From positions 1-33,272 of the IMG/VR virus record IMGVR_UViG_3300012953_005009: a stretch of DNA of 33,272 nt, one strand, 5' to 3'. This stretch comes from a virus (lineage: Duplodnaviria; Caudoviricetes). Made by a program: the position numbers and the translations under genes. Shown piece by piece: positions 1 through 24,382 of this stretch (the stretch's first letter is position 1; every line of letters starts with the position of its first letter). The notes under the pieces were generated by a model. The model did not search any database. It had not been told where the DNA came from and was given only the letters and a program-made list of their open reading frames with translations.

Positions 1-627
1 AATATCACGTGCACGTGCAACACCTACCATAGTGCCGCCACGTCCATGTTCTTTGCGCATCTCCAAACCACGTTTAGCGGCTTCAACCATTCCACTCGTA
101 GGTTTAAATGAATCAGGAAAGCTATCACTAGATTTAGCAGAAACTAATCCGCCGCCTGGCATCGTTTCAATACCAGATACTCCTCTACCACGAAGTTTTT
201 CCCAATGCTTTCTATCAGATACAACTCTTCTTGTCGGCCTAGAAGCTCTTAATATCCTAGAACCTCCAACACCCGCATGCGCACGTGCTGCATTAAACTC
301 TTCTGGGGTACCACAAGGAAACCAAACACCTTGTTTAGACATATGTGCTCCAGAGCAACCCAGTTTTACAGCTTCTCTAGATGCTGTGTCTTCAGAACCA
401 AAAGCTCCTTTAGGAAGCTTCTGATTTGCTTTCTCACTTTGTCGTTTCTTCCACTCTCTAAACTCAGGATTACCAAGCTCAAGAAGTTTATTTAGGTCTT
501 TTTCCGACTCACATGGTCCCCAAGCATCACCAACTTTATGTGATCCAGAGCAACCTAACATCTCTGAAAGTTTTTCAGCTAGCTCCTTCGTCGGAACCGT
601 CTGGCCCTCTAGGGGGTTCTTGGCCAC
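1..627 (-). CDS. Head-module protein with two GCxGxH...PC modules; partial, runs off the window; missing from the ORF track
   Basis: Hand translation shows a GTG at 627 behind an AAGGAG RBS and an open frame to position 1. It reads ...ELAEKLSEMLGCSGSHKVGDAWGPC...FGSEDTASREAVKLGCSGAHMSKQGVWFPC...FKPTSGMVEAAKRGLEMRKEHGRGGTMVGVARARDI. Confidence 0.85.
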   Translation of the reverse strand, partial: MAKNPLEGQTVPTKELAEKLSEMLGCSGSHKVGDAWGPCESEKDLNKLLELGNPEFREWKKRQSEKANQKLPKGAFGSEDTASREAVKLGCSGAHMSKQGVWFPCGTPEEFNAARAHAGVGGSRILRASRPTRRVVSDRKHWEKLRGRGVSGIETMPGGGLVSAKSSDSFPDSFKPTSGMVEAAKRGLEMRKEHGRGGTMVGVARARDI

Positions 628-1201
628 GCTGATCTCCTTCCCTTGTCTGCTGTACGGCAGTAAAGCCATAGTCTTCTGGTTTTATGTCTTTACCTGCTCT
701 TAAAATTGCATTTATATACTTTTTATTATTTTTTTCTTTAGCGTCTTTTAATAAGCCATATAAGCCCTTAGTTATACTCAACAAAGTTTCTGGAGAAGGC
801 TCAGATAACGGTTGATCAATTTCTCTTGAAGCAACAAACATCATGTACCTGATTTTATTTAAGTCATTATAAGAGAGTATTTTAGGATTCTTTGCGGGAA
901 ACATCACTATATAATCATTAAGTTCATTCAAAGACATACCTTCAAGTTCTTGATCGGCAACAGCTTGATCAGCATTGTACTGATTTATTTTATCTACACT
1001 CTTAACGTAGGGAACTCGTTTGATTTCCTTCATCTGTGGAAAAGCCGCTTTCAAATTATTCAAAGAATATGATTCTCCGTAAATACCTTTATACTCATTT
1101 ACCATCTTAGATACAGGGTTTTTAACTGAAAATTTACCAGTCACATCATCTTGAACTTCAACAACTAAAATGTTTTTACCAGTTAAATTGTAGTACTTCA
1201 T
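575..1201 (-). CDS. Hypothetical protein (208 aa)
   Basis: ORF track. Start is coupled to the upstream small ORF by an ATGA overlap. No recognisable motif. Confidence 0.8.
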   Translation of the reverse strand: MKYYNLTGKNILVVEVQDDVTGKFSVKNPVSKMVNEYKGIYGESYSLNNLKAAFPQMKEIKRVPYVKSVDKINQYNADQAVADQELEGMSLNELNDYIVMFPAKNPKILSYNDLNKIRYMMFVASREIDQPLSEPSPETLLSITKGLYGLLKDAKEKNNKKYINAILRAGKDIKPEDYGFTAVQQTREGDQRGQEPPRGPDGSDEGAS

Positions 1202-1421: not shown

Positions 1422-4400
1422 TTATTCTTCGCCTACAACATCATCAACTTGTTCAGTTAAGGGAGTAACTTTAATTGTTATTTGACTTTTAGCGTCCTCA
1501 AATGCTTCTTCAAGAAATGCTATTCTTTGGCCTCGGTTGTCAAAATCTGATCTTGGTGCTAGTGCATCTAAGATGCGATTTACCGCTGCGCTACCAGAAC
1601 CTTCTTGCGCTTTCTCTGCAGCGTTTCTTATATCTGAAATGTTAACCGCAATTTCTCCATTCGCCTCTACAACTTCCTCAATTATTGAGTCTAACTCTTC
1701 TCTTAAAGCGTCGCCTTCTAAAACATCTGCATCTAAGGATCTAAGAACTGGTTTAACTACTGGAGCTGTTGGGGCTTCCTCAACTGCTTCAGGAGTCGGA
1801 TCAGCGCCACCCGCTATATTTGCTCGCACTCCTTTAACATGCTCAATAAGCTCTTCTCTATCACGAATGCCCCTTCTTTGATCATTCTCTAAGTTTCTTT
1901 GTATGTTGTCTAAGTAGTTGTCTAACTTCTCGTTATAAGCACGTGACCCTTGCTGATCTCTTCGGCTACCCGGTAAAACCATATTTGTTTCAGGGTCAAC
2001 CAAGTTATCTAACTCTTCTTTAAATTGATCATCGCTTGTAACATCTAATAGCTCTCTCAAACTTAACGGCTCAGTTCTTGCTTTTGATTGCTGTTTAGCA
2101 TCAGCCACGGCTTGCTTATACTCTGAACGGAACTCTTTAGACCTATCAGTAGTCTCATCTAAAAGGTCTGGCTCATTATTGTAGTCAACCTCAGGGAAAG
2201 CATCGTTAAAGTTTCCTGAATCTACATTATCTAAGTCTCCAATAGACTTTTGATTTTGCGCAGCACCTTTCTGCAGTGCCTCGTCAAGGCCCATATCATC
2301 TTTTGAATAGATGTCAACAACATCAAAATGCATGACATCAGTTTCAATGAAATCATCGCTCTCGTCTATAAGGCCGTCTCTGCCAGCTTTAGGTGTCTTT
2401 AAGCTACCATCTGGGTTCTTTATACGTTCTTTTCTAACTTCTCTCCACATTCCTATAGCAACATCCTGATCTAAGTCGCCCAAGTTTGATCGGATCATAG
2501 CATAAACACGCTCTAATTTTTCTTGGTCAACTGAACCATCTGGTTTTATTAACTCTTCGGTCTTGATAACAATTCCTTGACCGTTTCTACCAACTGCCCA
2601 CCCGCTAGTAACATCGGTTCTATCAACAACATTTATTGTTCCTCCACCTTGCGCAACAGCCCGCTTTATAACATTTGACAAATTAGCAGGATTCTTAACA
2701 TAATCTATCTCACTAAAGTTACTCTTCAAAGTAGTCAAAACTTCAGCAGCTGAACGGCCATCAGGTAAATCAGCATAAGCAGGATTATTGGCCATCTCTA
2801 TCAACGCTGCCGAAGTCGGAGCATCAAGGCCAGACAATGGGCCAAACGCAAACATGTCTGTAGCAGACACAAGGGATCTATCGCCATCTGTAAGTCTCTT
2901 AATATTAGCTACAGTATCCAATATGTTGTCTTCATCTACTTTAGCATCCTTAAGTTCCTGTAAAGCTCTAACAGCTTCTTTCGTGGTGTCAGGATAACCT
3001 AACCTATCCAATGCTGCATCAACCGCATCAGGTGAGTTACCATTAAACATTGTCGCCAACAAAACAGATTCGTTTCTATCTATGCTTCTAACTTTGCGTA
3101 AACCATCAAGATCAATATTGGTACCTGGGAATATCTTATTTAACAAACCATGCTTTTCAAGCTCATCAAAGTACCTTCTAGTGCTTGGAACCGAAGCCAA
3201 ACGTCTTTGTAACTCTTTAGCTATTCTAAGAGGGTCAACTTCGCTTAGATCAGCTTCCCGTATTGCTTCTTCAAGATCAGCATCCATTTCGCTGTTACCA
3301 TCATTATTTCCAGTAACAAGCCTTCCTATAGCCCTTAAAGCTCTCAAAGGATCTTGAGAAATTCTTTCTTTCGGATCTCCAATAGCTTTAATTTTCTGAG
3401 GAGCAAGTTGAACTTCACCCACAGCTTCAACTGGATTTCCATCAGCATCAAGAACCTGTCCACCCTCAGGGAAATCATCAGTAACTAAACGCCTCTTTCT
3501 AAGGGAGCCATCACTTTCTACTTCTAAGCCTAAGTCATCTAAAGCACCAACAACATCTATAAATTGTGGATCTGCCGCTGTTCTACTGCCTTCACGTGCG
3601 GCTTCCATTCCATCTGGCGTAAGATCAACTGCTAAACCATTAACAGTTAAGTCTCTACGTGTCATGTCATCTTCAATAGTAGCCCCTGCAGTCGTAAGTG
3701 TTCCGTCTGGAAGCTCTTTTCTCATCGGAGCCATATTTATAACTAGCTCTCTACCAGAAGCTGTGGTCAAGAAATCTTTACCTGTGTACTGTAAATACTC
3801 ATTTCCTTCATTATCTGTTTTAAGGAGTAACGTACCAGTGTTTGGTCTTAAAGATCTAAAGCTTCCATCTGGACCAACTTCAGGAGCGAATCCCATAATC
3901 TCTACCATTTCTTCAATGCTAGCATCTGAAGCCAAATCAACTCTTCCTCGGTCAGGGAACTGGTTAGTCGCCATCATTCTAGCACCATCACCAGTCAAAT
4001 AGAGTTTCTTATCCCCATCAAAGAAACGCCACCTAATTCCACGCTGCCTATATGTTCCATCATCATTTTTCTTACCAATGTCTCGTATTGAGTCAGGCAG
4101 TTGATTTTGTGGACTAAAGATATCAGTAAACCTTCTAAACTTTCCACCAGTTTTAGGGTCTTTAGTTCTTTGCCTCTTAGAGAATGTACCAACTACACGA
4201 TCTTTAAGTCTCTGGAACCTAGACGGCTCAGGGGTAGCAGCATCACCCAAAGTTTCAGTCATATTATCTGCATCTACCGCTTCTTCCCTAACTCTCTCAA
4301 TCCTTTCTCTAGCGCCTTCAGTTCTCTTCAAGGCCTCTAAATAGGACTCAGGAACCTTTAACCTATCTGCAAGCGCAAGATTTTCTCTATCGTCAGTACC

Positions 4401-7400
4401 AATAACTTGATCACGGAACCAAGGTCTAAATACATCGCTATCAGCATCAAGCCCTCTCAAATTAGAACGTTGCTGAACTTCAGGCAGTTCCTGCAACTCG
4501 TTAATAAACGCCTCAAACTCTTGACGTTTTTCATCATCAGACATACCTTCCCTAAACTTAAAGTCGGGAACTGATATAATCTCATCAAATACTTCTTTAG
4601 AATCTCTTGGTGGGGTAGCAGGTGTGCCATCAGACTGAGGTGGAGTTACAGGAGGCGCTGCACGATCAGCTAGCTCATCGGTATCAGCAGCATCAGCAGT
4701 ACCTAGTGACTGCCTAATTTCAGCAGCTACACGGCCACGCTCATAATCACGCTCACGTTGATCAGGAGTCAATCTCCTAGAATAACCCACTTCTATGTTT
4801 CTAGCCTCAACTCTATCTATGCCTAACTCTTCGGCTGCTTCCTCAATGGTATAGCCTTGACGTGTGCGGAGATCCCAAAGTCTTTCTTCTGTTTCCCTTT
4901 GTTCACGTGCTTCATTTGAGAGTCTTGTTCTTCTTTCTCTTCTCTCATCACGGCGTTGACGCTCTGCTTGACGTGCTTCAGCTCTTCGCCTTCTTCTCCT
5001 TAGCCTAGCCTCATATAGCTCGTTAAACTCTGGATTTCGGACCATCTCTCCTGTCTCAGGGTCACGAATTTCCCGTGGAATTCTAGGCTCAGCAGCCTCA
5101 TCGGGTGTTAAGTCGTCACGGCGTACCATTCTACCTTCACGACGTCGTGTATTTAACCTAGCTCTAGCCATAGCCTCATCAAAATCTGCCCTATCTAAAG
5201 TCCTTGCATAATTAACTTCTGCTTGTCTGACCAGACCTCTGTCAACTCCCAAAATATCGGCTGCTTCTTCAACGTCTAAGCCATTTGTTCGTAGATTCCA
5301 AACTCTATTTTGAAAAGAAAGATCATCAGGAGTTGGCGGCGGCGTAGGCGCTCCCCCTGATTCAGGAGCGTTTATTAACCTTAGCGTTTCTTGTATGTCT
5401 GGCAATTCAAGTCTATTAATTGGCACTACGCCTCTTGATTGAGCAGCGTTAGTTATGGCCTCACCAATTGTATCAGGCGCAGCTCCATCAATAGGTATAA
5501 ACTCGCCTGGAAGACGTCTAGAGCCACGTCTATTATAAAGATCTAATAACTCTTCATCGCTCATAGTTCTAAGACGTCTACGTAAAGCTGACATAGCTCT
5601 CTCATCCCATGTGCTTTGCCACCCATTAAATGGACTACCAGCTATACCTACTGCAGCAAGAAGCTCATCTATGCTCATCTCATCGTATCTTCTGTCCAAA
5701 ACTCTTGGATCAAGCCTATCATAGGCCTCTCCTCTAGGACCTCTCGGACTTCTCGGCCTTCTCGGCCTTCTTGTCCTTGATCCTCTATCATTACTTGCGA
5801 CCCTCTCAATAGCGGCTTGTAAACTATTAACCCTATTCTCTAAACTGGTTAGCAAGTCATCCAAACCTGTAATCTCTAACCCGACTGTCGTTCTTTGATT
5901 CACATCCACGTCTGCTTCATCTGCAGGCGTCTCTGGGCTAGGTATTGGAATACCGCCCTGAGTTGTTTGATTAACAAGCTCTTCAAGATTAAAATCTTCA
6001 GGTAAGCCAGCCTGCGGCGCATCTGCAGCAGGGGGTAGCCCATCTTGCTCTACCAAAACTTCTTCAACTTCTGCTCTGTCGGCATCAAAGGCATCTACAC
6101 GCCTTGCTTCAAGGCTAGTGTTTCTAGTAACTCTATCTTCATCTAGCTTAGCTGTAGAAAGTTTTTGCTTATGCTCAGCTTCACGAACTCGGACCTCAAA
6201 CCGATCCATGCCCAATCTTTGAGCGACTTCATCAACACTTAAGCCTTCATCAGTCCGTAGACTATATATTTGCTCGTCTAGATCTGGATTGACTTGGAAT
6301 CCACTTGACTCAACCCACTCACGGACTTGAGGCGCCGTGGGGCTATTACCTGCGGTTATTTCTCTTCTTCCGCCTAAGGCACTAGTAGAAAGCATATTCC
6401 TTCCTTCAGGCCTATTTCTTCGTGCTTTTGTTTCGTCAAGTATCTCAGCAAGATTGCTCATTCTCATCATCAAGTAATCATCACCCGGCACATTAGATTG
6501 CAGGCTAAAAGCAGTTATAAGTTGATCTAAGTCCTCTTCAGTCTCTGCTAAAACCAATGGAGCTGGGGTTGAGCGATCATCAAAGAAATTATAAGCCCCT
6601 TCTAATCTTTCGTCAAACCTAGTTACTGCTTGCAACATTTCAATTGCTTGAGCTCTAGTAATTAAACTGCCGTCAGGATTGGTCCTACCAATTAAAGTTC
6701 CATCTTCAAGTATAGTCGGATCTTGGAATATATTAAAGTCATCATCTTCTGGCCTGTTAACCATGCTGGACAACATTGTTTTAAGTGTATGATTCATAAG
6801 TCTCATGTCCTGAATTTTACCTTGACTAAATGTCATTTCAGAAACTGGAGAAACAGGAAGCCCAACTGCAGACTCAGGAGCCCCAACAGGCGGAGCAGGT
6901 GTAAAATCAGTATCTCTTAAGGCATGAGCTACTGCTCTTTCTACAACTTCTTCGGGCGTCATGCTATTTGCTTGAGCAACCTCAGAAACTTGTTCCATAA
7001 TTGCATCAATGCCCCTTCTTGCAACCTCGTTAGTTCTATCAGTTTGCGCATTAAGTTCATCAAATATTGTAAGCTGTCCAGCTATCTGTGCGTTAGCATC
7101 AGACTCATCATCGTTTTTAAAGAAGTTTGTCCTAAATTTTCTACCCTTGAAAACTTTAGAAAACTTATCAAAGAAATTAGGCGTAGCATCATTATCTGGT
7201 TTAGTTACATCTTTTGAAGCTACTCTTCCAGAAGGAGCGTCTAAAGCGCCTTGTAGAACCTTTTTCAAATTCTCTAAATCTGCTGGAGTATCTACCTCTT
7301 CTATTAAGGAGTCCACATCATCAATTAGTGCCTGAAGCGTAACTTCATCCCCAAGATCAACAGCAATATTGTCTAGAGGATTATCTGTTCCTCTCGTCTC

Positions 7401-10400
7401 TTCAGGGAAATCAGAAGAATTTCTTAATTCGGCAGCAAGGTTAAGTAGGTTAGAAACCTCTTCATCATCTTCACCTAACACGCCTTCATTAGTAAGCTTG
7501 GTGATCACCCTATCAATAGAAGCTGCAGACCTGCTTCGTTCTTCTTCAGTCATCAAAGCCGAATGACGTTTGTCAATAGAGTCTAAACGATTACCATATG
7601 CATCTCTAGGAACATTAGGATTTAATCTTCTTCTAATATCACTAAGCTCAGTTGCCATTTCTCCAGCTATGGCCTGTTCTGGCTCTTCTAACGCTACAGT
7701 TAGATCTGAAACATCTAATTCTAGAGACTCGCTAGCTAGACTAGGAAGACGACGATAATCGCCGTACTCTTCAAAAATTCTTACGTTATCATCACTAACA
7801 GTGTCAAAAGTCCCTAAATTTGCAAGACCGCCAAACGCTGTCATTGCGTTATCTATCTCTGCTTTTACTCTTTCAGGGTCATCAACTCTTCTTTGTGTGT
7901 CAGATCCAGTCATCGCTCTATATAAAGCAGAACTTTTATTAAGATCTCCGTTTGAATCTAATCCAACTAACAGCGAATAAATAGAATATGAATCTGGAAG
8001 GTCATCAACAGACGTATCTGCGGTTAAATTAGCAATACCGTCTTCCAAAGCTCCTTGAAGAATTCTAAGCTCTTCAAGTTTTTCCGGAGTACCCACAATC
8101 GTTAACGCAGCAACATCTGATGGATTAAGATCATCACCTCTGGTTATTTTACTAATTGCCGCATCAGCATCATTTACAATATTGCCAGCTAAGCTAGTAT
8201 TAATGCCAAATTGATTTGTACCCTGTGGGGGTCTTAGACCATACCTAACCCAAGTAGCTTGACCACTATATGCTGTACTACTAACACCAAATGTGGTAAT
8301 TCTATTGCCAACCAAAAATGGTGTTACTCTTTCAACCATTTGTCCGAAAAAACCACCATCAGCAAAACTAATATCTTGATCAACTCCGAGTCTCTGAACA
8401 GGTCTATACCCAGCCGAAAATCCAGCTCCTAGATGAGGATTCCTAGTATCTACATTTAAACCCGCAGTTTCAAAATTAGCTTCTCCGCTTGAGAAATCTA
8501 TATTAAACTGCAGTCCGCCACGTTCCCAATCGTTTCCAGCCCCAGTACCAGTGTAAATTACTTCGCCATTATCTTTTCTACGAAGCTCAAAAGAAAGAAC
8601 TGTATCTACATCTATCCGATCATCGTTATACCGATCTTGCTTTACTATGTTTCTCATAGACATTGGACCATCTGGATCAAATTTAACAAACCGCTCAACC
8701 TCAACAGGCCCATCAGGACCAAGAACCGTAAACGTACCCTTTAACTTAACTCCAGAAGTATTGACAGTGTTACCATCAGCATCGGTAACATCAACATTGC
8801 CAAGCATTTTATTAACAAAATCTTTAATTCTTGCATCCCTTCTGCTGGCAACCGCAGCGCCGCCCAATATACCTTGTCGGAATATATCTTTAGCGGTATC
8901 ACCTACACCCAAATTATTCCAATCTTCATCAGGGGCTACATAAATACCTGTTGATTTATATAGCGCTGCACGGGCAGCGTTGCCCTCAGGAGTATTTGGC
9001 ATAGTTTCACTAACGTTTTTATAGAGAGCTAGTTTTTCTTGATTGCGTAATGCCACAAGCCTACCATGATCTTGCCACGGCACCGTAGCCAAAGCACTAA
9101 CCGATGAAGGTAAATTAGGATTATCTAAAATACTGTCTCGTAGCGTAGCATTTACAGTTGTACCATTTACATAGTTTCTGTACAACGCTTTATCAATTTT
9201 CTGCCGTATTTCAGTACGCTTATTTTGAGCTCTTGCTTTTAGTCTTTTCTTAAAGTTTGTTATACCATACCTAGACTCAAGGCCAAGCGGATTATCTTGA
9301 AGGCTTCGTAAAGTAGCATTGTCTACCTGTGGCTCAGAGTCAGAGTCTCTCCGCATACCCGCCTTGGATAAAAGGTTATTCCTGTCAAAAGTATTTATTC
9401 TACGTAAAGCATCTTCAAACTGTCTAGTGAAATCAGTGATGCCTGCAGGGCTTGCGTCATCATCAGCTATTAAATCACGCATCTCTCTAAACGTATTCAA
9501 CTCCGACATAATTCTAGCGTGTACATTGCGGGCTTTAGCAGAATCTTTATCCACTGGATCATAATCTACATCTGCAACACTTTTAAGAAAATCTACAGCC
9601 ATTTCATCTATTTGATCATCACTTTGATTTCTAAAAAGTGATGAACCTCCAACCGCTCTTGCCTCAACAAGAAGCATCTTTAGGTTATCTCTTGAAATTA
9701 CTGCTTGCTCTTTTACGTCGTTTCTTCTAGCGTTCAAAAAAGGTTCATTAAGAGTTCCATCTTCATTATAAAAAATAGCTGAAGTAATATCTCCTATATC
9801 ATCACTCGTTCTCCGCATGCGCCTACCACGGATAATATTTCTTGACAATCTTTTAAGTTTTTCTGTGCTTGCAGCGTACCTTTGCTGGAGATTTTCCCGA
9901 AGCTCAGCCACCGTTTCTCTAGGCTTTCTTTCAATTCCCGTGTCCGTGGCGTCTCCTCGCCTAATTATCTGGAGTGAAAAATTATCTAACAAATCTTGAA
10001 TTTGCCTACCTGCTCGCTCAACTCTCTCATCAGTACTTGTGTTGTCCGTCAAACGGCCAGCTTCTAAGTTGGCTAATTTCGTTAAGCCTTCCCAAATTCC
10101 TTCAATTTCTCCTCTAGTGCCATTCTCTATAACATCATTTATGTCATTCTTCAAACTGTCTAAAGTATCTCTCGTAGACTGACCACTAAAATATTTTTCT
10201 TGGTCTGGAGTGAGAGAACCTATAGATCTGCGTTGACCAATAGTCCTACCTAAGCTACGCCCTGATCTAGACTCTGTAATGTTTAAAACTTCTTCTAATT
10301 TCTCGTTTAGTCTGGCTATTCCGTTGGATGCTCTATCGGCCTTCTCTTTGCGGCCTCTACCTTTACGACTTATGTTTCTAACAGCATTAGTAGCTTTGCT

Positions 10401-12347
10401 TAAGTTATCTACTATATTAGCGGGGAGCGAGTAGCCACAATTGCTACCTAACCTGTCAGAAAACGTACCGCCTCTACGAGTGCCTGGAGGGCAACGGAAG
10501 CGGCCCAAAGCATTATCAAAAATAGCTGTAGCAGAACCTCGTAAACCTCTACCTGCACCTCTTCCTGCCCGTCTTGCAGCCCTACCCAATCTAGGTGCTT
10601 TCACATCCATTTCTACTTGGCCTAATAGTCGTGTGAAGTTGGCTGTCTTTTCATTTACTAATCTGAAATAGTCACGGGCTAAACTAAAGTCTTCTTTGTT
10701 AATGTGTTTCGCATTAAAAAAAGGGGATACGGATTTTTCCTCACCGTCTATCAATTCATAAACAGGATCATTATCAAGTCGTCTTGGAGCTGACCTAGAA
10801 AGGAAAGTGTCATACACCCATTTTGGAACAAGTTTAGTTACACCACCTGAGCGAACCTGAACTAATTCATTCTTAGCGGTATTATCTGGTATGAAAGAAT
10901 TGTTACGTATCTCGCCAAACTCAACTGTAAACTTACCATCAGAAGTATTGATAAAGTCCATTAATGGAGCGGTTCTATCGGGGTTCCTGCCTGTGTTCTT
11001 AGCGACTGCAGCATTAAAAGCTCTAAACGTTCTATCCTTAACGCCTTGATCAAGCTCTCCGCCTTCACGACTTATTTTAATAACGCCTTCATCTAAAGAA
11101 ATATAGTTATCTCGTATACCTGTGCCAAAAGTTCCTATAGAGCCTTGACCTAAAATACCATCATTATACTTTGTTATCAATGAGCCATCAACCATGTCGT
11201 CAAACTCATCAAGCTTACCTAACTCTTCAAAAGAAACTTTAGGCTCTAAAATAACACCATCTCTTCTCACAAATCTGGTTGGTACATTCTCACCGTTAGC
11301 TATTCTAGCTAAAACCAAATCTACTGATGTTTGCCTTCTTGTCGGGCTTGTCTTTTTAGGCGCAAAGGGTATCTGCGCAGCACGTATAATGTCATATGGG
11401 TTTGAATTGTTTTTAAGATCTCCAATGCTTCTAACAAGGCTAGCATCTCTAGCCAAACTAGCCAGCGCTCTTTCAATTCCTGTCGTAAAAGCACCCGGCC
11501 CAAAACTAGGAATGCCTAATATTTGAGCACCACAAGTGCTGTAAAATTTGTTTGTAAATGTTCCACCTTTTTGAAATCCCGGTGGACACCTGTATTTGTT
11601 TCTAGCGCCTCTTCCAGCACCTCGCACAACTCGTCTAAGTCCTAATCCTCGTCCTCCACCTGGCGTCAAAGTTTCATATATTTGTGAACGGACAGGGCTT
11701 CTAAAATCTGAAATATCACCTGGAAGCAAGATACTACCTACAGCTTGTATTGCTTGACCAGCCGCACTGTTACTTCCAACTATACCAACTCTTTTAACTC
11801 GTATCTCATCTTTCCTATCAGCCACTTCATCTAATCTAGCAGAAAACATAGCAGCTTTTGCTTCTAAAACGTTCTGCCTTCCAGCAATAGGCTGAACCAA
11901 TATGCCATTAAAAGAACGAGACTCAGTAATCATATCTTTGAAGCTGTATTCATAACTAATAAGGTCAGAACCATCTAAAGACTTCTTGCCTCTTTTCTTC
12001 CGTTTCTTTGGTTTCTTAAGAGAACGTCTTGCTCTACCGACAATAGGGCCAAGCTTACCACCTTCATGATGGTTCCCTTCATTTGGCCAAAGACCTGTAG
12101 TTTCATGATGCAGCCACGCACAAATTCTTTGTAAAGGATATAACTCTGGATGGTCAGCTAATATAACTAGACAACGCCTAAATCCGCCTGGCTTTCTCAT
12201 TATTGGACGCCAATATTTAATCAACCTTTCAAGGTTGCCTCTTCTTGGTCCACGTCCACGAAGAATATCACCAGTTATTCGTTCTTGGGGTAAGTCAAGT
12301 ATAGCTTCTTGCGGAGCTTTTATTTCAGATTCCCAGTCAATACTCAT
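1422..12347 (-). CDS. Giant polyvalent protein (~3,641 aa): Cys/His N-terminal module, two CPPG motifs, GNAT-like segment, three HTHs, CCA-adding/poly(A) polymerase-like domain, C-terminal alpha/beta domain
   Basis: Uninterrupted 10.9-kb ORF. The ATG at 12347 (GAGG RBS, just after the upstream ORF's TAG) is preferred over the GTG at 12371. Motifs include RRDLTVNGLA, QDPLRALRA, GLLNKIFP and three LRT..G..V/I.E.A..LG.DR repeats. Confidence 0.9.
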   Translation of the reverse strand: MSIDWESEIKAPQEAILDLPQERITGDILRGRGPRRGNLERLIKYWRPIMRKPGGFRRCLVILADHPELYPLQRICAWLHHETTGLWPNEGNHHEGGKLGPIVGRARRSLKKPKKRKKRGKKSLDGSDLISYEYSFKDMITESRSFNGILVQPIAGRQNVLEAKAAMFSARLDEVADRKDEIRVKRVGIVGSNSAAGQAIQAVGSILLPGDISDFRSPVRSQIYETLTPGGGRGLGLRRVVRGAGRGARNKYRCPPGFQKGGTFTNKFYSTCGAQILGIPSFGPGAFTTGIERALASLARDASLVRSIGDLKNNSNPYDIIRAAQIPFAPKKTSPTRRQTSVDLVLARIANGENVPTRFVRRDGVILEPKVSFEELGKLDEFDDMVDGSLITKYNDGILGQGSIGTFGTGIRDNYISLDEGVIKISREGGELDQGVKDRTFRAFNAAVAKNTGRNPDRTAPLMDFINTSDGKFTVEFGEIRNNSFIPDNTAKNELVQVRSGGVTKLVPKWVYDTFLSRSAPRRLDNDPVYELIDGEEKSVSPFFNAKHINKEDFSLARDYFRLVNEKTANFTRLLGQVEMDVKAPRLGRAARRAGRGAGRGLRGSATAIFDNALGRFRCPPGTRRGGTFSDRLGSNCGYSLPANIVDNLSKATNAVRNISRKGRGRKEKADRASNGIARLNEKLEEVLNITESRSGRSLGRTIGQRRSIGSLTPDQEKYFSGQSTRDTLDSLKNDINDVIENGTRGEIEGIWEGLTKLANLEAGRLTDNTSTDERVERAGRQIQDLLDNFSLQIIRRGDATDTGIERKPRETVAELRENLQQRYAASTEKLKRLSRNIIRGRRMRRTSDDIGDITSAIFYNEDGTLNEPFLNARRNDVKEQAVISRDNLKMLLVEARAVGGSSLFRNQSDDQIDEMAVDFLKSVADVDYDPVDKDSAKARNVHARIMSELNTFREMRDLIADDDASPAGITDFTRQFEDALRRINTFDRNNLLSKAGMRRDSDSEPQVDNATLRSLQDNPLGLESRYGITNFKKRLKARAQNKRTEIRQKIDKALYRNYVNGTTVNATLRDSILDNPNLPSSVSALATVPWQDHGRLVALRNQEKLALYKNVSETMPNTPEGNAARAALYKSTGIYVAPDEDWNNLGVGDTAKDIFRQGILGGAAVASRRDARIKDFVNKMLGNVDVTDADGNTVNTSGVKLKGTFTVLGPDGPVEVERFVKFDPDGPMSMRNIVKQDRYNDDRIDVDTVLSFELRRKDNGEVIYTGTGAGNDWERGGLQFNIDFSSGEANFETAGLNVDTRNPHLGAGFSAGYRPVQRLGVDQDISFADGGFFGQMVERVTPFLVGNRITTFGVSSTAYSGQATWVRYGLRPPQGTNQFGINTSLAGNIVNDADAAISKITRGDDLNPSDVAALTIVGTPEKLEELRILQGALEDGIANLTADTSVDDLPDSYSIYSLLVGLDSNGDLNKSSALYRAMTGSDTQRRVDDPERVKAEIDNAMTAFGGLANLGTFDTVSDDNVRIFEEYGDYRRLPSLASESLELDVSDLTVALEEPEQAIAGEMATELSDIRRRLNPNVPRDAYGNRLDSIDKRHSALMTEEERSRSAASIDRVITKLTNEGVLGEDDEEVSNLLNLAAELRNSSDFPEETRGTDNPLDNIAVDLGDEVTLQALIDDVDSLIEEVDTPADLENLKKVLQGALDAPSGRVASKDVTKPDNDATPNFFDKFSKVFKGRKFRTNFFKNDDESDANAQIAGQLTIFDELNAQTDRTNEVARRGIDAIMEQVSEVAQANSMTPEEVVERAVAHALRDTDFTPAPPVGAPESAVGLPVSPVSEMTFSQGKIQDMRLMNHTLKTMLSSMVNRPEDDDFNIFQDPTILEDGTLIGRTNPDGSLITRAQAIEMLQAVTRFDERLEGAYNFFDDRSTPAPLVLAETEEDLDQLITAFSLQSNVPGDDYLMMRMSNLAEILDETKARRNRPEGRNMLSTSALGGRREITAGNSPTAPQVREWVESSGFQVNPDLDEQIYSLRTDEGLSVDEVAQRLGMDRFEVRVREAEHKQKLSTAKLDEDRVTRNTSLEARRVDAFDADRAEVEEVLVEQDGLPPAADAPQAGLPEDFNLEELVNQTTQGGIPIPSPETPADEADVDVNQRTTVGLEITGLDDLLTSLENRVNSLQAAIERVASNDRGSRTRRPRRPRSPRGPRGEAYDRLDPRVLDRRYDEMSIDELLAAVGIAGSPFNGWQSTWDERAMSALRRRLRTMSDEELLDLYNRRGSRRLPGEFIPIDGAAPDTIGEAITNAAQSRGVVPINRLELPDIQETLRLINAPESGGAPTPPPTPDDLSFQNRVWNLRTNGLDVEEAADILGVDRGLVRQAEVNYARTLDRADFDEAMARARLNTRRREGRMVRRDDLTPDEAAEPRIPREIRDPETGEMVRNPEFNELYEARLRRRRRRAEARQAERQRRDERRERRTRLSNEAREQRETEERLWDLRTRQGYTIEEAAEELGIDRVEARNIEVGYSRRLTPDQRERDYERGRVAAEIRQSLGTADAADTDELADRAAPPVTPPQSDGTPATPPRDSKEVFDEIISVPDFKFREGMSDDEKRQEFEAFINELQELPEVQQRSNLRGLDADSDVFRPWFRDQVIGTDDRENLALADRLKVPESYLEALKRTEGARERIERVREEAVDADNMTETLGDAATPEPSRFQRLKDRVVGTFSKRQRTKDPKTGGKFRRFTDIFSPQNQLPDSIRDIGKKNDDGTYRQRGIRWRFFDGDKKLYLTGDGARMMATNQFPDRGRVDLASDASIEEMVEIMGFAPEVGPDGSFRSLRPNTGTLLLKTDNEGNEYLQYTGKDFLTTASGRELVINMAPMRKELPDGTLTTAGATIEDDMTRRDLTVNGLAVDLTPDGMEAAREGSRTAADPQFIDVVGALDDLGLEVESDGSLRKRRLVTDDFPEGGQVLDADGNPVEAVGEVQLAPQKIKAIGDPKERISQDPLRALRAIGRLVTGNNDGNSEMDADLEEAIREADLSEVDPLRIAKELQRRLASVPSTRRYFDELEKHGLLNKIFPGTNIDLDGLRKVRSIDRNESVLLATMFNGNSPDAVDAALDRLGYPDTTKEAVRALQELKDAKVDEDNILDTVANIKRLTDGDRSLVSATDMFAFGPLSGLDAPTSAALIEMANNPAYADLPDGRSAAEVLTTLKSNFSEIDYVKNPANLSNVIKRAVAQGGGTINVVDRTDVTSGWAVGRNGQGIVIKTEELIKPDGSVDQEKLERVYAMIRSNLGDLDQDVAIGMWREVRKERIKNPDGSLKTPKAGRDGLIDESDDFIETDVMHFDVVDIYSKDDMGLDEALQKGAAQNQKSIGDLDNVDSGNFNDAFPEVDYNNEPDLLDETTDRSKEFRSEYKQAVADAKQQSKARTEPLSLRELLDVTSDDQFKEELDNLVDPETNMVLPGSRRDQQGSRAYNEKLDNYLDNIQRNLENDQRRGIRDREELIEHVKGVRANIAGGADPTPEAVEEAPTAPVVKPVLRSLDADVLEGDALREELDSIIEEVVEANGEIAVNISDIRNAAEKAQEGSGSAAVNRILDALAPRSDFDNRGQRIAFLEEAFEDAKSQITIKVTPLTEQVDDVVGEE

Positions 12348-12348
12348 A

Positions 12349-12522
12349 CTAGGCCTCGTTATTTTCTTCACTTACAGGAATGAACTCATATACTTTTTTC
12401 TCATCGCCGCTATTGTCAACCAAAAGGTCGTGAGATATATCTCCTAAGATAGTCTTTGAACCGATATGATACAGAGCTTGATTAGCCAAGCGTATTCTTT
12501 CCCATGCCGTGTTAGGCGTCAT
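12349..12522 (-). CDS. Small hypothetical protein (57 aa); missing from the ORF track
   Basis: Strong AGGAGG RBS, then MTPNTAWERIRLANQALYHIGSKTILGDISHDLLVDNSGDEKKVYEFIPVSEENNEA*. Fills the gap between the 712-aa gene and the giant gene. Confidence 0.8.
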   Translation of the reverse strand: MTPNTAWERIRLANQALYHIGSKTILGDISHDLLVDNSGDEKKVYEFIPVSEENNEA

Positions 12523-12541: not shown

Positions 12542-14680
12542 TCAGGAAAGTCCGTCAAATTCCTCTTTTAGACTTTCAAACTCTTTTAGAGCTTCATTAA
12601 TATTAATTCCTAAGTCATCTAAGGTTTTTTCTTCTTCCATTCGCTCAGCTTGTGGAGCTTCAGCTTGTGGAGCTTCTGGTGCAGCGTTAGCCTCTCCAGA
12701 CCCGACCATCCATTCATCAGGAATCATGTCTTCTTGACCTAATTCTTCAGCTCGTTTCATAATGTGTTCTTTTGCGGCATCTTTATCTGCTGCACGACCA
12801 TAAGCCTGTATAGCATTTCTAAGATCAGCTTCATCGGCTATTGGGAAAGATCCATCAGGTAATGCATCTCCATTTTCAGCCATCTCTTCTCGCTGTTCTC
12901 TGCTGTACATTCTCTTTAGCTCTAACTCAGCTTCTAATGCTTTTATTTCGTCTTCATCTGAAAGTGGAGCTTCTACTGCATACTCATCGTACCCTAGAAC
13001 CTTACCTTCCATGTCAACAAAAACATCAAAGCTCTTTTGGTCAGCAGTTTCAAGTTGAACTACATAAACATCTTCATTATTAAATATGTCAGGAGATACG
13101 CTTTGTACTTCTCCCCCAACTACTTTTACAGCTGCATTTTCTGCATCAGCGTGTGAAATTATATCCCAACCAGAAAGTTCTTTTTCTTCTAGAAGGGCTT
13201 CATCAATCTTTAACCATCCTAGTTCTTCGCCTTCACCTGAGACAAATATTTCAACTGCTGAACCATCTGCACGTTTAACATCTAGAACAAATATATCATC
13301 AGCACTTGAGTATCCAGACCCTACAATTTCAGAGCCTTCATGCGCTGATTTAACCATTGCTTCAATGTCAGCTAGACCTGGAAGATCGCCTTCTGGGGCG
13401 CATCCACCTCTACAGAAATCACATGGTTGAGCTACAGATTTTCTTTGGAATCCACATAAGAAGTCTTCGCTCTTCATTCTTTCCATTCCTTCTGCTTCGC
13501 CTTGACCAGTAAGCTTTGCGTATTCTTCAGGATTTTCACATGGTAAGAATTTTCCATCTGCTTCATGTGCGCCTGAACAGCCTAATGCTGTTGCCGCTTC
13601 TGCTGCATCTTCGGCTGAATCAAAGAATTTTTCTTTGTATTCAATGTTTCGTTTCATAGGGTTACGTCTGCGATACCGCATACCATACCCTTTTTCAGAA
13701 TCTTCATCATATATCTGAACCAACTCAAAAGCTTCCTTAGCATCTTCATCTAGATCGCCATATTCTTTCAAGTTTAGATACTCTCCAGTGTGGCACTTAT
13801 CATCAAAGTCAGCTTTAGACAAGAAAACTGAAGGAACATCAGGATTTTCATCCTCGTCTTCGTCAGCTTCTCTCGTAAGATTTTCAAGAATTCTAGAAGC
13901 TTTTTCTGCCATTTCTGCAGTGTCTTCTTTTTTCTTTTTCTTCTTATCGTCATCATCATCGTTCATAGAGCCATAACCTTTTTTAGACATCAGATCAGTA
14001 TATGTTTCCATATCAGCACAAGGCATAAACATGCCATTATCGTGTCCGTGCGATCCTTCGCACCCCAGCTCTACAGCACGCTCAGCAGCTTCAGCTGCAG
14101 TTTCAAACATATCTTTCATGTCGTCTTCGTCTTTATCGTCACGATCATGCATAGATCCATAGCCTTTTTCTTCAGCGTCTTCGTCTTCTGATACTTTGTA
14201 TCTGAATGCCCAGCCCATAGGTTCTTCGGTCTTTTCGTCAATGACGTTGACCACTTCGTAACCTTTTTTCTCTTCTTCATCAAGAGCATTAAAAGCCTCT
14301 TCATTTATTAGATCTCCGGCCTCCATAGCTTCTTTGAATCTGATATCAGACATATAAACTGAAATAGCGCCTTCAAAATCTGCAAGCCTAGGCAGGTCTG
14401 TCATATTTTGAGCATCAGCTTTTTGATCTGTATTTTCTAGCTTAGCATGAAGTTCCTCTAGCTCCGCTAATTGCTGTTCTTCTGATTTCTCTTCAGCTTC
14501 TTCTGCAACTTCTTCGGCTACTTCTTCAGCCGCTTCTTCGGCTGCTTCTTCCACCGCTTCTTCGGCTGCTTCTTCCGCAACCTCTTCAGCTTCTTCTTCT
14601 GATTTTACTTCTGTGCTTTCTAGTTGAGCGTGAAGCTTTTCTAACTCCGCTAATTGCTCTTCTAGTTCGTTGTTTTCCAT
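12542..14680 (-). CDS. Acidic modular head-associated/scaffold-like protein (712 aa)
   Basis: Lies immediately after the prohead protease with an AGGAG RBS. Has Glu/Ala helical repeats, two GCxGxH...PC modules, a Cys cluster (CGF...PCDFCRGGC), two PepSY-like units and a C-terminal ALPDGSFPI...LRNAIQAYGRA...HIMKRA...IPDEW module. Confidence 0.7.
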   Translation of the reverse strand: MENNELEEQLAELEKLHAQLESTEVKSEEEAEEVAEEAAEEAVEEAAEEAAEEVAEEVAEEAEEKSEEQQLAELEELHAKLENTDQKADAQNMTDLPRLADFEGAISVYMSDIRFKEAMEAGDLINEEAFNALDEEEKKGYEVVNVIDEKTEEPMGWAFRYKVSEDEDAEEKGYGSMHDRDDKDEDDMKDMFETAAEAAERAVELGCEGSHGHDNGMFMPCADMETYTDLMSKKGYGSMNDDDDDKKKKKKEDTAEMAEKASRILENLTREADEDEDENPDVPSVFLSKADFDDKCHTGEYLNLKEYGDLDEDAKEAFELVQIYDEDSEKGYGMRYRRRNPMKRNIEYKEKFFDSAEDAAEAATALGCSGAHEADGKFLPCENPEEYAKLTGQGEAEGMERMKSEDFLCGFQRKSVAQPCDFCRGGCAPEGDLPGLADIEAMVKSAHEGSEIVGSGYSSADDIFVLDVKRADGSAVEIFVSGEGEELGWLKIDEALLEEKELSGWDIISHADAENAAVKVVGGEVQSVSPDIFNNEDVYVVQLETADQKSFDVFVDMEGKVLGYDEYAVEAPLSDEDEIKALEAELELKRMYSREQREEMAENGDALPDGSFPIADEADLRNAIQAYGRAADKDAAKEHIMKRAEELGQEDMIPDEWMVGSGEANAAPEAPQAEAPQAERMEEEKTLDDLGININEALKEFESLKEEFDGLS
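14490..14600 (-). repeat. Coding tandem repeat, 12-nt unit (EEAA/EEVA)
   Basis: Repeated gcttcttc/ttcttcggct units encode EEEAEEVAEEAAEEAVEEAAEEAAEEVAEEVAEEAEE. Boundaries are approximate. Confidence 0.75.
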
Positions 14681-14710
14681 TATTTTCTCCTAAAAGTTCC
14701 TTAACTTAGT

Positions 14711-16360
14711 TTAGTTAATATTAGCTTCCGTGTCAAGACGATCATCTTCAAATCTGCTAGAAACCGTTGGTTCAAAAGACAGACCAGCTATAGAAAAGGC
14801 AACCTTTTCTAAGAGATCATCATGTTCGTAATCTTTCGCAAACAGAAGATCAATTCCGTCTTCTGTCCTTACTGGAAGAACTGGTAAAGTTTTAACTGTA
14901 TCCAAGACTTCAAACGCTTCAGCTTCACCACATTTGAGATTAACAACAAAGCCTGAAGTTGCTTTTTCAGAAGCAATTACCACTTCAACTTGTTCTTCTC
15001 TCATTTCAACCATGAAATCTTCAACCATGGATATTAAAGCTAGTGTAGCTTCACGTTCTTTTCCTGCGCCCTTAAGCGGAATCATAGCATTATAAGCCAT
15101 GAGTAGTAGTGCCATTGGATCTCTTTGTACAGCGCTTGATGGACCTTTTCTGTATTTGCCTCCGCCTTTTGTTTCTGTATCACAGGAACAAGGCTCTGCG
15201 TCTTTCTTTACGACGCTTTCGTCTTCTGTAACATTTGCACTTGAAACATAATCATTAAATTCGCTTATGTTTGCGTTATTGTCAAATGCTTTGAGAGATT
15301 CTAAGTATGTCTCTCTGTCTTTACATGGGAAGAATCTGCCACCTTCAGAGTGGAATCCTTCGCACCCTAGTGTCATGGCCCAAGATAAAGCTGTATCTTC
15401 TCCAGAAAAACCTTCTGGGTCAATTGGCTCTCCATTCTCTTCTTCTCCGTCACGCATGAGAACACCATGCATTCCTTCTGCTTTTAATGCTGTCATTGGC
15501 TTCCTTTCCATCCTTTCAGCCTCTCCCCCACTTTGTGGAAGCGTTTCAGACACTCCTCCGTCAAGAGGAACATATGTTGTCATTGGTTTTACTCTGGTTG
15601 GAGCGCCAACCATAAAGCGATTTCCTTCACGATGAAAACCAGCTTGCCACACCATTCCCGGCGCAGATTCAAAAACAACTGTATTTTCATCCATGTTTAT
15701 TATTTCAATCGGGCGATTAAGTGCTTGAGAAAGAGCTGTTCTTAAAACAGAACGTGCATCTGAAGGATCAGCGTTTTGTGTTTGACGCAGCCCTCCTTTT
15801 TCTTCAGCATCTTTAACGGAAATAGTGCCTGTTAGTTGATTTGCCCCATGTAAAACTGGAGAAACCTCATAAAGCTCTACTTCTTTTAACATATTAGCTT
15901 GAATGTCATTGTTGAAATCAGCTATCAATGTTTTATATCCGATTGACCATTCTTGCTCATTGCCATAAAAAGCAACATTAGCAAAGGCTTCACGCCCTCT
16001 TTCGGTGTTTAGATTGAATTGAACCTTTGCAAAAAGACCACCAACTTTAGCTTTTTTCATTTTTTCTGGTAGCCTAGGGTCGCTTTTAGGCACTTCATAG
16101 ATATCAATAACCTTTCCGATGGGCTGATTCCAGTCATGGCCCCATACCACACGGGGTTTCCTTCTCTTCAAAGATGCATTAAATGCTCCCGGCATTACTA
16201 CATCTCCTACTGAATCTTTATTGCCTATCGCAGAAACAAAGCATTCTACAATGCCTTGTGCTTTATCTACCCCAATTTGACCTGAAATAGCCTTAAAAGC
16301 AACGTCATCATCGCTTGAAAGTTCAGGGGTAACCACTGAATCTATTGTTAAAGTTGTCAT
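14711..16360 (-). CDS. HK97-family prohead (capsid maturation) protease with a long C-terminal extension
   Basis: The N-terminal ~180 aa carry typical motifs: GNKDSVGDVVMPGAF, VVWGHDWNQPIG, GLFAKVQFNLNTERGREAF, EWSIGY, EVELYEVSPVLHGAN. Located downstream of portal and MuF. Confidence 0.93.
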   Translation of the reverse strand: MTTLTIDSVVTPELSSDDDVAFKAISGQIGVDKAQGIVECFVSAIGNKDSVGDVVMPGAFNASLKRRKPRVVWGHDWNQPIGKVIDIYEVPKSDPRLPEKMKKAKVGGLFAKVQFNLNTERGREAFANVAFYGNEQEWSIGYKTLIADFNNDIQANMLKEVELYEVSPVLHGANQLTGTISVKDAEEKGGLRQTQNADPSDARSVLRTALSQALNRPIEIINMDENTVVFESAPGMVWQAGFHREGNRFMVGAPTRVKPMTTYVPLDGGVSETLPQSGGEAERMERKPMTALKAEGMHGVLMRDGEEENGEPIDPEGFSGEDTALSWAMTLGCEGFHSEGGRFFPCKDRETYLESLKAFDNNANISEFNDYVSSANVTEDESVVKKDAEPCSCDTETKGGGKYRKGPSSAVQRDPMALLLMAYNAMIPLKGAGKEREATLALISMVEDFMVEMREEQVEVVIASEKATSGFVVNLKCGEAEAFEVLDTVKTLPVLPVRTEDGIDLLFAKDYEHDDLLEKVAFSIAGLSFEPTVSSRFEDDRLDTEANIN

Positions 16361-16461: not shown

Positions 16462-17244
16462 TTATTTACTAAATCGTAAGAAACATCTACAGTTTATTGT
16501 TAGCGAAGGAGGCGCTATCGGATCTCTCGGAAAGCGTATTGGGATACTATTAACTATAAAAGGCTCACTTATTGCAACATTATCGCCTCTAAGTATTCTG
16601 TGAGTTTCCCTAACCTTATTATCTCGCATTGTTACCCATGTTTTCTTTATGGAAGCATCGTTTAATGCTGAATCATAAAGCCCCATGTTGTAAGACCCCA
16701 GTATGGCAGAATCAGCAATTAACTTCTTTCGCTTTCTTCTTAGTAGCCTAAAAACACTTTTTATCAAATAATAAGCTAATAAAAGCTTGAATGCTATATC
16801 AATATCGTCATCCTCTCCTTCAATGCCAGCGGCTTGAGATAAGGCTTGCACAATATACTTCTGTGTAGTAGAATTAAAAGTGTTAACAGTAGAAACCTGT
16901 TGTGACATAGCCGCACTGGCTGAATCTTCTTGAACAGGCTCACCATAACCTTCTTGAATATTGTCTTCAATGCCCTTTTCATAGGCTTTTTGCATGTCAC
17001 TTATCATAGGGTCGGATGCTGTAGTTAAAGCAGCCATTGAAACTACTGAAGCAAAATCAGCTTGCTCCCCTAAGCCTATCAAAGCTTTTGTAGCTTCTTC
17101 TTCTAAAGCATCTAACGCTAGTTTCTCTTGGGAGTCTATAACAGAGTCTAAAGTTCTTTTAAATGAAGACTCTAAAGAAGTTACAGATTTTTCTACTTTA
17201 GTTTCCCAAGTGTCTTCTAGAAAAGAGGCTTGTGGGGAAAAGGG
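16462..17244 (-). CDS. MuF / SPP1 gp7-family head morphogenesis domain, probably translated as a -1 frameshift extension of portal
   Basis: C-terminal KTWVTMRDNKVRETH...EPF...RFPRDP...TINCRC signature. The frame is open back to 17253 with no ATG/GTG/TTG before the weak TTG at 17082, and it overlaps the portal 3' end at a C CCT TTT heptamer. Confidence 0.85.
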   Translation of the reverse strand, partial: PFSPQASFLEDTWETKVEKSVTSLESSFKRTLDSVIDSQEKLALDALEEEATKALIGLGEQADFASVVSMAALTTASDPMISDMQKAYEKGIEDNIQEGYGEPVQEDSASAAMSQQVSTVNTFNSTTQKYIVQALSQAAGIEGEDDDIDIAFKLLLAYYLIKSVFRLLRRKRKKLIADSAILGSYNMGLYDSALNDASIKKTWVTMRDNKVRETHRILRGDNVAISEPFIVNSIPIRFPRDPIAPPSLTINCRCFLRFSK

Positions 17245-19039: not shown

Positions 19040-20356
19040 ATGGCGTTACAAGAACCAGACTGGGAATCCATACATAAATGGCTTCAACCTAAAGGATCTG
19101 AATACTGGGTAGAAGAACCTTCCCTTACTCAAAAAGTTTTCTTAAAAACAACTGCGCAAGAAGTATTGTTTGGAGGAGCTGCTGGTGGTGGTAAAAGTTC
19201 AGCGTTGCTAATGGCAGCTTTACAGTATGTAGATATTCCTAGCTACTCAGCTATACTTTTTCGTAGAACATATGCTGACTTAGCGTTGCCTGGCGCTCTT
19301 ATGGATAGGTTTAGAGACTGGATATCTAACTATGAAGATATTCACTGGAACGCAAACCAATATACGGCTACTTTCCCTAGTGGAGCTAGAATAACATTCG
19401 GATACTTAAATAACAGTCAAGATTATCTAAGGTATAAAGGTTCTGAATTTCAGTTTATTGGCATGGATGAGGTTACTGAAATTCGTGAAGCTGACTATCG
19501 CTACTTGTTCTCTCGTTTACGTAGGCCATCTACTGGTCCTTTGTCTCAAGTTCCGCTTCGGATGCGTGCAGCTACCAACCCTGCACCAAACTGGGTTAGA
19601 CAAAGATTTCTAGTAGAAGGTAATGAAAAAGGCAGGATATTTGTTCCTTCAAAACTTACAGACAACCCAGGCATAGACCCTGACTCCTACAGAGCAGTTC
19701 TAGCAGAGTTAGACCCAGTTGAACGTAAAAGGCTAGAGTTTGGCGACTGGTGGGCAACAACCCTTGGGTCAATGTTTGACAGAACGCAATTTGAAATACT
19801 TGAGCCAGCAGAAATACCTGATTTCAATAAAGAAACAACTATAGTTAGGTTCTGGGATTTAGCCGGAACAGAGCCAAGTCCTTCTTACCCTGATCCTGAC
19901 TGGACAGTGGGATGCTTGGGCGCAATGCACGGAGGAATATTCTATGTTCTAGATGTTAGGCGTATACGGGCAAAAGGAGATAGGGTTGAAAAGTTTATAA
20001 AAGAAACTGCAGAAGAAGATGGTGCCGAAATATCAATAATGATGGAGCAAGAACCAGGCTCGGCTGGTAAAAATCTTATTGATCAATACGCTCGTTATGT
20101 GCTCGTAGGATATGACTTCAAAGGACAACGTTCAACTGGCGATAAAGAAACAAGAGCTAAGCCTATGTCGGCTGCAGTAGCTAATGGCAATGTTAGGCTA
20201 CTTCGTGGGCATTGGAATACCGACTACATTGATGAGATGTCAGCTTTTCCGGAAGCTAATGTACACGATGACCAAGTTGATGCTTCTGTGCATGCTTTTA
20301 ATTTATGCGCAGGATTAGGAATGGGCATAAAAAAGAAACTTGAGATTATAGTTTAA
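19040..20356 (+). CDS. terL: Terminase large subunit
   Basis: Walker A GGAAGGGKS, Walker B FIGMDE, motif III AATNP, nuclease motifs RFWDLA and HDDQVDA, AAGGAG RBS. Confidence 0.95.
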   Translation: MALQEPDWESIHKWLQPKGSEYWVEEPSLTQKVFLKTTAQEVLFGGAAGGGKSSALLMAALQYVDIPSYSAILFRRTYADLALPGALMDRFRDWISNYEDIHWNANQYTATFPSGARITFGYLNNSQDYLRYKGSEFQFIGMDEVTEIREADYRYLFSRLRRPSTGPLSQVPLRMRAATNPAPNWVRQRFLVEGNEKGRIFVPSKLTDNPGIDPDSYRAVLAELDPVERKRLEFGDWWATTLGSMFDRTQFEILEPAEIPDFNKETTIVRFWDLAGTEPSPSYPDPDWTVGCLGAMHGGIFYVLDVRRIRAKGDRVEKFIKETAEEDGAEISIMMEQEPGSAGKNLIDQYARYVLVGYDFKGQRSTGDKETRAKPMSAAVANGNVRLLRGHWNTDYIDEMSAFPEANVHDDQVDASVHAFNLCAGLGMGIKKKLEIIV

Positions 20357-20520
20357 GTAACCTCTAGCGCATTCATTAATATCTTTTGAGCATCATAAAG
20401 CTTTTGCTTGTACTCAACCCTGTCTATATCAATGCGGTCTTTCGCCGCTTCTATTGATGCAAGGGCGGCAACTGCTACATCAAATTTAAATGTAACCGTA
20501 ATGTCTTTGTTTTCATCCAT
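20353..20520 (-). CDS. Small hypothetical protein (55 aa); missing from the ORF track
   Basis: MDENKDITVTFKFDVAVAALASIEAAKDRIDIDRVEYKQKLYDAQKILMNALEVT*. Start overlaps the upstream gene's end, and its stop overlaps the convergent terL stop (TTAA). Confidence 0.7.
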   Translation of the reverse strand: MDENKDITVTFKFDVAVAALASIEAAKDRIDIDRVEYKQKLYDAQKILMNALEVT

Positions 20521-23201: not shown

Positions 23202-23202
23202 T

Positions 23203-24381: not shown

Positions 24382-24382
24382 G

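Follow-up and report, generated by a model that had tools for sequence, protein, structure and literature searches.

A conserved, probably catalytically dead class II CCA-adding enzyme-like domain in a giant head-operon protein of a marine phage

The stretch of DNA analysed here (33,272 nucleotides, hereafter the window) comes from a marine phage whose head-assembly operon encodes a giant protein, P0001, with an embedded stretch resembling CCA-adding enzymes. The genes and features of this region are the following:

1422–12371, minus strand: giant head-operon protein P0001, a single open reading frame of 3,649 residues with a conserved N-terminal module followed by variable cargo domains
10692–12347, minus strand: conserved N-terminal module of P0001 (residues 9–560), common to 67 viral loci, with no match among solved structures
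4764–6281, minus strand: three helix-turn-helix repeats (residues about 2031–2066, 2361–2383 and 2501–2536), upstream of the CCA-like domain
2712–4100, minus strand: class II CCA/poly(A)-polymerase-like domain (residues 2758–3220; head, neck and body), from profile and structure matches
2172–2708, minus strand: domain following the CCA-like one (residues 3222–3400), with no match in Pfam or PHROG
12542–14680, minus strand: DUF3721/PepSY-like protein, upstream neighbour of the giant gene, from a profile match
14711–16360, minus strand: prohead protease (Peptidase_S78), from Pfam and PHROG profiles
16462–17082, minus strand: MuF-like head morphogenesis protein, from Pfam and PHROG profiles
17217–18827, minus strand: portal protein, from Pfam and PHROG profiles
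19040–20356, plus strand: terminase large subunit in divergent orientation, from Pfam and PHROG profiles

The portal, MuF-like and prohead protease genes lying upstream agree with the first-pass annotation, which had placed the domain inside a phage head-module protein. Look-alikes of residues 3222–3400 in the Atlas (0.86–0.88, to be taken as leads only) are clusters that include, in part, fusions to portal proteins. Residues 1230–1400 (window 8172–8684, minus strand) have homologues in loci L002, L003, L005, L006 and L009 and matched nothing in profile searches; the end of this segment carries a motif that we take to be reminiscent of phage GNAT acetyltransferases. DUF3721 repeats are found in three head-region proteins, the prohead protease among them (window 1–669 and 12542–16360, minus strand). 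Elsewhere, the contig carries a ParB-like/PAPS-reductase-like/ParB-like trio (22680–25177, minus strand) resembling phage DNA-modification clusters, an L,D-transpeptidase (YkuD; 20513–21202, minus strand), WhiB (29502–29843, minus strand) and a full RecA (30274–31248, plus strand). WhiB, the one indication of the host, suggests an actinobacterium (PMC7771536). Seven loci of the carrier family described below sit in metagenome-assembled genomes of mixed phyla, which we read as misbinned and uninformative on the host.

A search with the N-terminal 550 residues or so of P0001 recovered 67 viral loci (L002–L068), with a prohead protease in 63, a portal in 61, a terminase in 53 and a MuF protein in 52. 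They define a family of head-operon proteins of 1.3–3.7 thousand residues whose reading frames diverge past the shared N-terminus; in L016–L019 and L041–L042, the N-terminal module is a separate gene. A similar gene order is seen in L012 from a reading of the sequence, and the locus of the L071 orthologue has a Phage_capsid gene four genes downstream. Residues 1–600 have no match in Pfam. The predicted structure of the module (mean pLDDT 63) is confident for residues about 260–540; Foldseek found no match to it in the PDB at E ≤ 0.001 and a search of the Atlas gave no usable match, while other Foldseek rows are an uncharacterised phage protein (E 1.6e-19) and, weakly, a minor capsid protein (E 8e-3). 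Among 21 scanned family proteins, seven carry other cargo (Nudix, Fic, pentapeptide and PI3/4-kinase-like domains, several of them below cut-off) and 14 carry none; the motifs of the Fic, Nudix and kinase-like cargo look intact. The CCA-like domain is present in one of the 31 complete family proteins from viral loci (>1,300 residues), and hence is dispensable for the family.

This organization recalls the polyvalent proteins described by Iyer et al. 2017 (PMC5512222), which are likewise large, multi-domain, encoded in packaging operons and variable in domain content among orthologues. P0001 shows the same traits: it has many domains, its gene lies with those for packaging and the head, and its family varies in effector domains. 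The giant protein fits, by analogy, a polyvalent-type carrier whose N-terminus is conserved and whose C-terminal part varies. It differs from them in that its N-terminus has no Pfam counterpart and in its cargo, since the string 'CCA' has no occurrence in the main text of PMC5512222. The same source notes a PBECR domain without activity in the MuF protein of Mu, proposed to bind RNA. A search of a collection of phage records returned no match.

The motif set quoted by the first-pass annotation is found in full, in the right order and in a single minus-strand frame (residues 2790–3082). That annotation had given the domain the span 3120–4010: the location is right, while the domain extends further on both sides (about 2712–4100). 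Its features are as follows, all on the minus strand:

3975–4004: LYLTGDGARM (residues 2790–2799), motif A region
3936–4004: motif A, with G2794-D2795 at the GG position, R2798 kept, M2799 in place of the Asp of RD, and R2810-V-D2812 at DxD
3921–3947: GRVDLASDA (residues 2809–2817), motif A region
3759–3902: lineage-specific head expansion (residues 2824–2871), of low pLDDT, 26 of 48 sites invariant in five orthologues
3735–3737: N2879, at the position of the third carboxylate
3630–3677: IEDDMTRRDLTVNGLA (residues 2899–2914), motif B, from the translated reading frame
3651–3659: RRD of motif B (R2905-R2906-D2907), intact and invariant
residues 2937–2947: FIDVVGALDDL, from the translated reading frame
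3402–3521: insertion between head and neck (residues 2951–2990), poorly conserved, 3 of 39 sites invariant
3330–3392: IKAIGDPKERISQDPLRALRA (residues 2994–3014), motif D, from the translated reading frame
3342–3356: QDPLR of motif D (Q3006, D3007, R3010), with D and R kept and E replaced by Q
residues 3049–3054: RIAKEL, from the translated reading frame
3126–3149: GLLNKIFP (residues 3075–3082), from the translated reading frame

Both Pfam families expected for such a domain were matched, marginally above cut-off, in a 400-residue piece: PolyA_pol (E 5.5e-5, 23.9 bits for a cut-off of 23; only 20.2 bits with the whole protein) and PolyA_pol_RNAbd (E 8.5e-5, 22.7 bits for a cut-off of 22). The same piece matches PHROG 2244, tRNA nucleotidyltransferase (E 1.1e-12). 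Seven NCBIfam CCA/PcnB models also match, all far under their cut-offs (best, 40.4 bits for a cut-off of 290), so that the score of a curated class II family is not reached in NCBIfam; on a 473-residue piece, PRK13299 of NCBIfam gives E 1.8e-10, far under its cut-off. With phmmer, 342 proteins were found at E ≤ 0.001; the best 150 of them comprise two orthologues, the other 148 being for the most part, judging from their motifs, ordinary class II enzymes. A single-sequence phmmer search of the PDB gave no match; a profile search of it gave 20 class II sequences. In a control with the profile, the domain scored 147 bits, a value inflated by the choice of profile members for their similarity to the domain, and its reversal, 200 shuffled versions and further segments of the giant protein scored at most 2.6.

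An AlphaFold2 model of residues 2750–3222 (mean pLDDT 82.9) aligns lengthwise to class II CCA and poly(A) enzymes in Foldseek (E 8.6e-11), and VIA superposes 335 residues of it on 4x4w (Z 25.1, rmsd 4.2). The domain is thus predicted to have the full class II CCA/poly(A)-polymerase fold, with a Pol-beta head and a helical neck and body; this result is partly circular and depends on homology, since 64 of the 67 rows in the model's alignment are canonical. A fold other than the Pol-beta type, which would have spoken against the assignment, is not what the model predicts. Compared with class II CCA enzymes, the domain is alike in the predicted head–neck–body fold, the order of the motifs, RRD and the D and R of motif D, and it differs by GD for GG, RxD for DxD, an Asn as third carboxylate, QDxxR for EDxxR, a conserved head expansion, an insertion of about 40 residues before the neck and its location in a protein of 3.6 thousand residues.

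A nearly invariant DxD is the defining mark of class II CCA enzymes, whose phage copies are taken for tRNA repair enzymes. We tabulated the active-site positions of three orthologues against 64 intact homologues. The substitutions read at first pass (GD for GG, RVD for DxD and QDxxR for EDxxR, with RRD intact) are all present, together with a loss overlooked then, that of the third carboxylate. In detail, (i) the second Gly of GG, a Gly in 64 of 64 intact homologues, is D2795; (ii) the Asp of VRD, present in 63 of 64, is M2799; (iii) the first catalytic Asp (Asp1), an Asp in all 64, is R2810, and the second, D2812, is kept; (iv) the third carboxylate, a Glu in all 64, is N2879; and (v) the first position of motif D, a Glu in 62 of 64, is Q3006. 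The strand register (RVDLASDA against DFDLATDA) is unambiguous and places the Arg at the Asp1 position. RRD, N2911, R3003, D3007, R3010 and R3013 are retained; these residues and R2798 presumably line the nucleotide pocket as in solved enzymes.

These changes differ in weight. According to a preprint (10.1101/2023.12.02.569716), after Hou 2005, the two motif A carboxylates suffice for class II enzymes and the third is dispensable, so that the replacement of the Glu by Asn would not be fatal alone. The E. coli CCA enzyme loses activity in the variants D21A/D23A and D23A, and its D21 is named as a ligand of the metal (PMC6468291). In the human enzyme, Gln occupies the first template position in 4% of functional clones, while D165 and R168 are irreplaceable (PMC11784652), and this position also varies in CC-adding enzymes. 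QDxxR is a weak sign because the exchange of Glu for Gln is tolerated in the human enzyme, and we dropped it as proof of changed specificity. The decisive changes are probably the replacement of Asp1 by Arg and of the Gly by Asp, QDxxR saying little. Neither an Arg at Asp1 nor an Asp at the second Gly occurs in any of the 64 intact homologues or of 73 scorable viral open reading frames.

The set of orthologues consists of P0001 and four long proteins, P0003–P0006 (domain identity 58–64%), to which three near-copies of P0006 and a fragment, P0155, add further rows. The G-to-D, D-to-R, E-to-N and E-to-Q changes are common to the five orthologous sequences and the three near-copies, and all five lineages share GD.AR, DxxRVD, the Asn and QDPLR. 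Motif A, canonically hG[GS]x9-13 DxD, does not hold its two metal-binding carboxylates in any of the five, which read G-D and R-V-D, none retaining DxD, and the third carboxylate is replaced by N2879 in all five and in P0155. That fragment, from one contig and without the motif A region, reads QDPLI and therefore has no base-reading Arg; a distant fragment, P0011, also from one contig, reads DDPTI. Contigs from four other public marine runs carry identical letters, three of them covering the motif A codons, which, with the recurrence of the substitutions in the orthologues, rules out a sequencing or assembly artefact. Further orthologues were sought in viral scans (only L002/L072 and one short unrelated match), in a metagenome scan (only the protein itself, L070 and L071), in genome contigs (none) and in phage records (just one distant 25% match); the known range is narrow, at five lineages. 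In the tree, six orthologous rows form one group with support 99 and a long stem (support 100 and stem 1.43 with four rows); altogether, the stem branch measures 0.86–1.43 and the crown is short.

Pairwise identity is 74.5% in the head, 70.5% in the neck and body and about 47–55% in the linkers. From the three sequences with DNA, for which dS is near saturation, dN/dS rises from 0.08 in the N-terminus to 0.10–0.19 in the neck and body, 0.20–0.33 in the head and 0.26–0.57 in segments of the linkers and the C-terminus. By these estimates, the domain is under purifying selection (dN/dS about 0.1–0.3). Since the five orthologues share the changes and dN/dS is in this range, they reflect neither an artefact nor decay specific to one genome; the simple decay that the first-pass annotation had named as a reason to abandon its reading is not what we see. 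Intact homologues conserve 45 sites to 90% or more. Of these, 23 persist here, and 21 of the 23 do not vary among the five, the background being 215 of 462 (p about 1e-5 to 2e-4, for sites and sequences that are non-independent). The replaced sites are invariant in 14 cases of 22, which is not significant alone (p 0.08–0.28).

The domain is probably a conserved, catalytically dead pseudoenzyme, because Asp1 is replaced by Arg, the phosphate-loop Gly by Asp and the third carboxylate by Asn. Of the two possibilities raised at first pass, the dead module gains from the predicted fold, the sharing of the substitutions by all five orthologues and the purifying selection, while the enzyme of changed specificity fares poorly, with the base-reading D and R intact, the Glu-to-Gln exchange tolerated and the metal-binding half altered. 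A rewired but active transferase, in which D2812 and D2795 and/or D2807 hold one metal and R2810 replaces the second, with tRNA or another molecule as acceptor, appears improbable. It could draw on the invariance of D2795, D2807, R2810 and D2812 in the five orthologues, the tolerance of the Glu-to-Gln exchange, the reported dispensability of the third carboxylate and the active look of other cargo domains of the family. However, D2807, the Asp of FPDRG, lies in a two-residue loop insertion ahead of the catalytic strand, outside the DxD register, the Asp1 Arg and second-Gly Asp have no precedent in the homologues and viral frames scored, and five sites would be invariant by chance, at the background rate of the head, with a probability of about 0.05.

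A functionless relic in slow decay, retained only since an essential giant protein must fold, is less probable still. The entire giant protein has a dN/dS below 1 and the domain is rare in the family, both as expected of a relic, but the head and body are far better conserved than the linkers, and the five lineages show no deletions or differences in decay, with synonymous sites near-saturated.

The pattern of change suggests that the site was altered in the half that handles metal and triphosphate and that selection maintained the half that reads ribose and base. Our preferred mechanism, which as a whole we hold only tentatively, has the dead domain clamping an RNA 3' end or a nucleotide without metal, in a protein probably packaged in the head. 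Two-metal catalysis would be lost through the three substitutions above; R2810 would neutralise a phosphate in lieu of Mg2+, D2795 would fill the unused triphosphate site, and the retained RRD and DxxR would still read the ribose and an A or C base. The putative clamp would resemble an enzyme bound to its product, a completed CCA end, the most likely ligand being the CCA of tRNA. The giant protein would be packaged and then injected, as other polyvalent proteins. Since a capsid holds few 400-kDa copies, the domain would more plausibly serve neighbouring domains by tethering or sensing than shield the tRNA pool as a whole. An action against host anti-phage tRNA attack, proposed at first pass, finds nothing in its favour, and the window contains no tRNA genes. 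Several observations speak against the clamp: the sequences QDPLI in P0155 and DDPTI in P0011, a neck arginine (residue 3016) that varies between G and R, and a Thr in place of the flexible-loop arginine. Many kept residues may moreover be structural salt bridges, so that their retention need not mean a working pocket. The net charge of the domain (–25 to –33) is unexpected in a tRNA binder, but cargo CCA domains with intact motifs are even more acidic; acidity was consequently set aside as an argument against function, being non-discriminating.

Less likely than the clamp, though a serious candidate, is a dead enzyme serving as a mere folded scaffold or protein-binding surface, for the giant protein or a host partner, with the pocket empty and the head expansion as the working surface. 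The expansion is conserved like the head itself (26 of 48 sites invariant against 93 of 170), the long stem (0.86–1.43) and short crown are what a change of function would leave, the domain has a strongly acidic character, and P0155 and P0011 have no DxxR Arg. What tells against an empty pocket is that 21 of the 23 retained canonical sites are invariant, and that they include residues presumably lining the nucleotide pocket.

The clamp allows a broader proposal, which we regard as doubtful: an injected capsid protein would, as early as the first minute of infection, grip or sense the 3' ends of mature tRNA, as one of repeated conversions of phage CCA enzymes to pseudoenzymes; a bolder variant would have a class II fold perform nucleotidyl transfer with one metal and an assisting arginine. 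A selected, naturally dead copy would mean that the annotation of a CCA enzyme in phage cargo can mislead, and would offer a compact test case for which half of an active site persists once catalysis goes; if tRNA ends are bound, phages would have a tRNA-binding module of a new kind, which might be usable as a reagent for CCA ends. A literature search, covering mainly openly available papers, listed no account of a dead CCA domain carried by a phage head protein.

In sequence, the nearest relatives are likewise of the RRDLTxN type, and genes of this kind are frequent on viral contigs (77 loci kept). All three carboxylates are kept in 70 of the 73 scorable viral open reading frames (78 loci; 10 further rows, halves or misaligned, were dropped), unlike here, and none of the 78 viral CCA loci tested has a neighbour resembling the portal, MuF, protease or terminase of the window. 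Jumbo phages are known to encode CCA-adding enzymes (PMC7824862).

A further counterpart is P0169, of the cluster of P0126, in which an intact CCA domain and an HExxH motif stand behind a DxDxDG..QEGT leader; this leader matches 8 of 3,187 open reading frames of the family loci and is homologous to cargo frames of the family (E 1.5e-10 to 2.2e-6). Like the window protein, P0169/P0126 have a CCA domain within an acidic multi-domain protein, but all their catalytic residues are intact and they lie on another branch of the tree. Shared ancestry with the dead domain is not rejected by the AU test (p 0.36, with a long branch). By its motifs, P0169 would be a natural active-looking counterpart of the dead domain. 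No genomic context for P0084/P0126 was found in viral contigs.

Altered catalytic or RRD residues also occur in the CCA-like proteins P0041, P0163, P0117, P0100 and P0011, most of them outside the present clade, indicating that the degenerate CCA theme recurs; P0011 groups as a long-branch sister. Several viral CCA genes are split at one place, between the strand of the third carboxylate and RRD (L073, 2839–5220; L074, 7266–9979; L092, 8025–10780; L126, 8588–10780), with no Rfam intron match at gathering score. In L073, an open reading frame of 240 residues, GIY-YIG homing-endonuclease-like by eye, lies between the CCA halves. Finally, P0061 fuses an RNase_T-family exonuclease to a CCA domain, a possible trim-and-rebuild pair.
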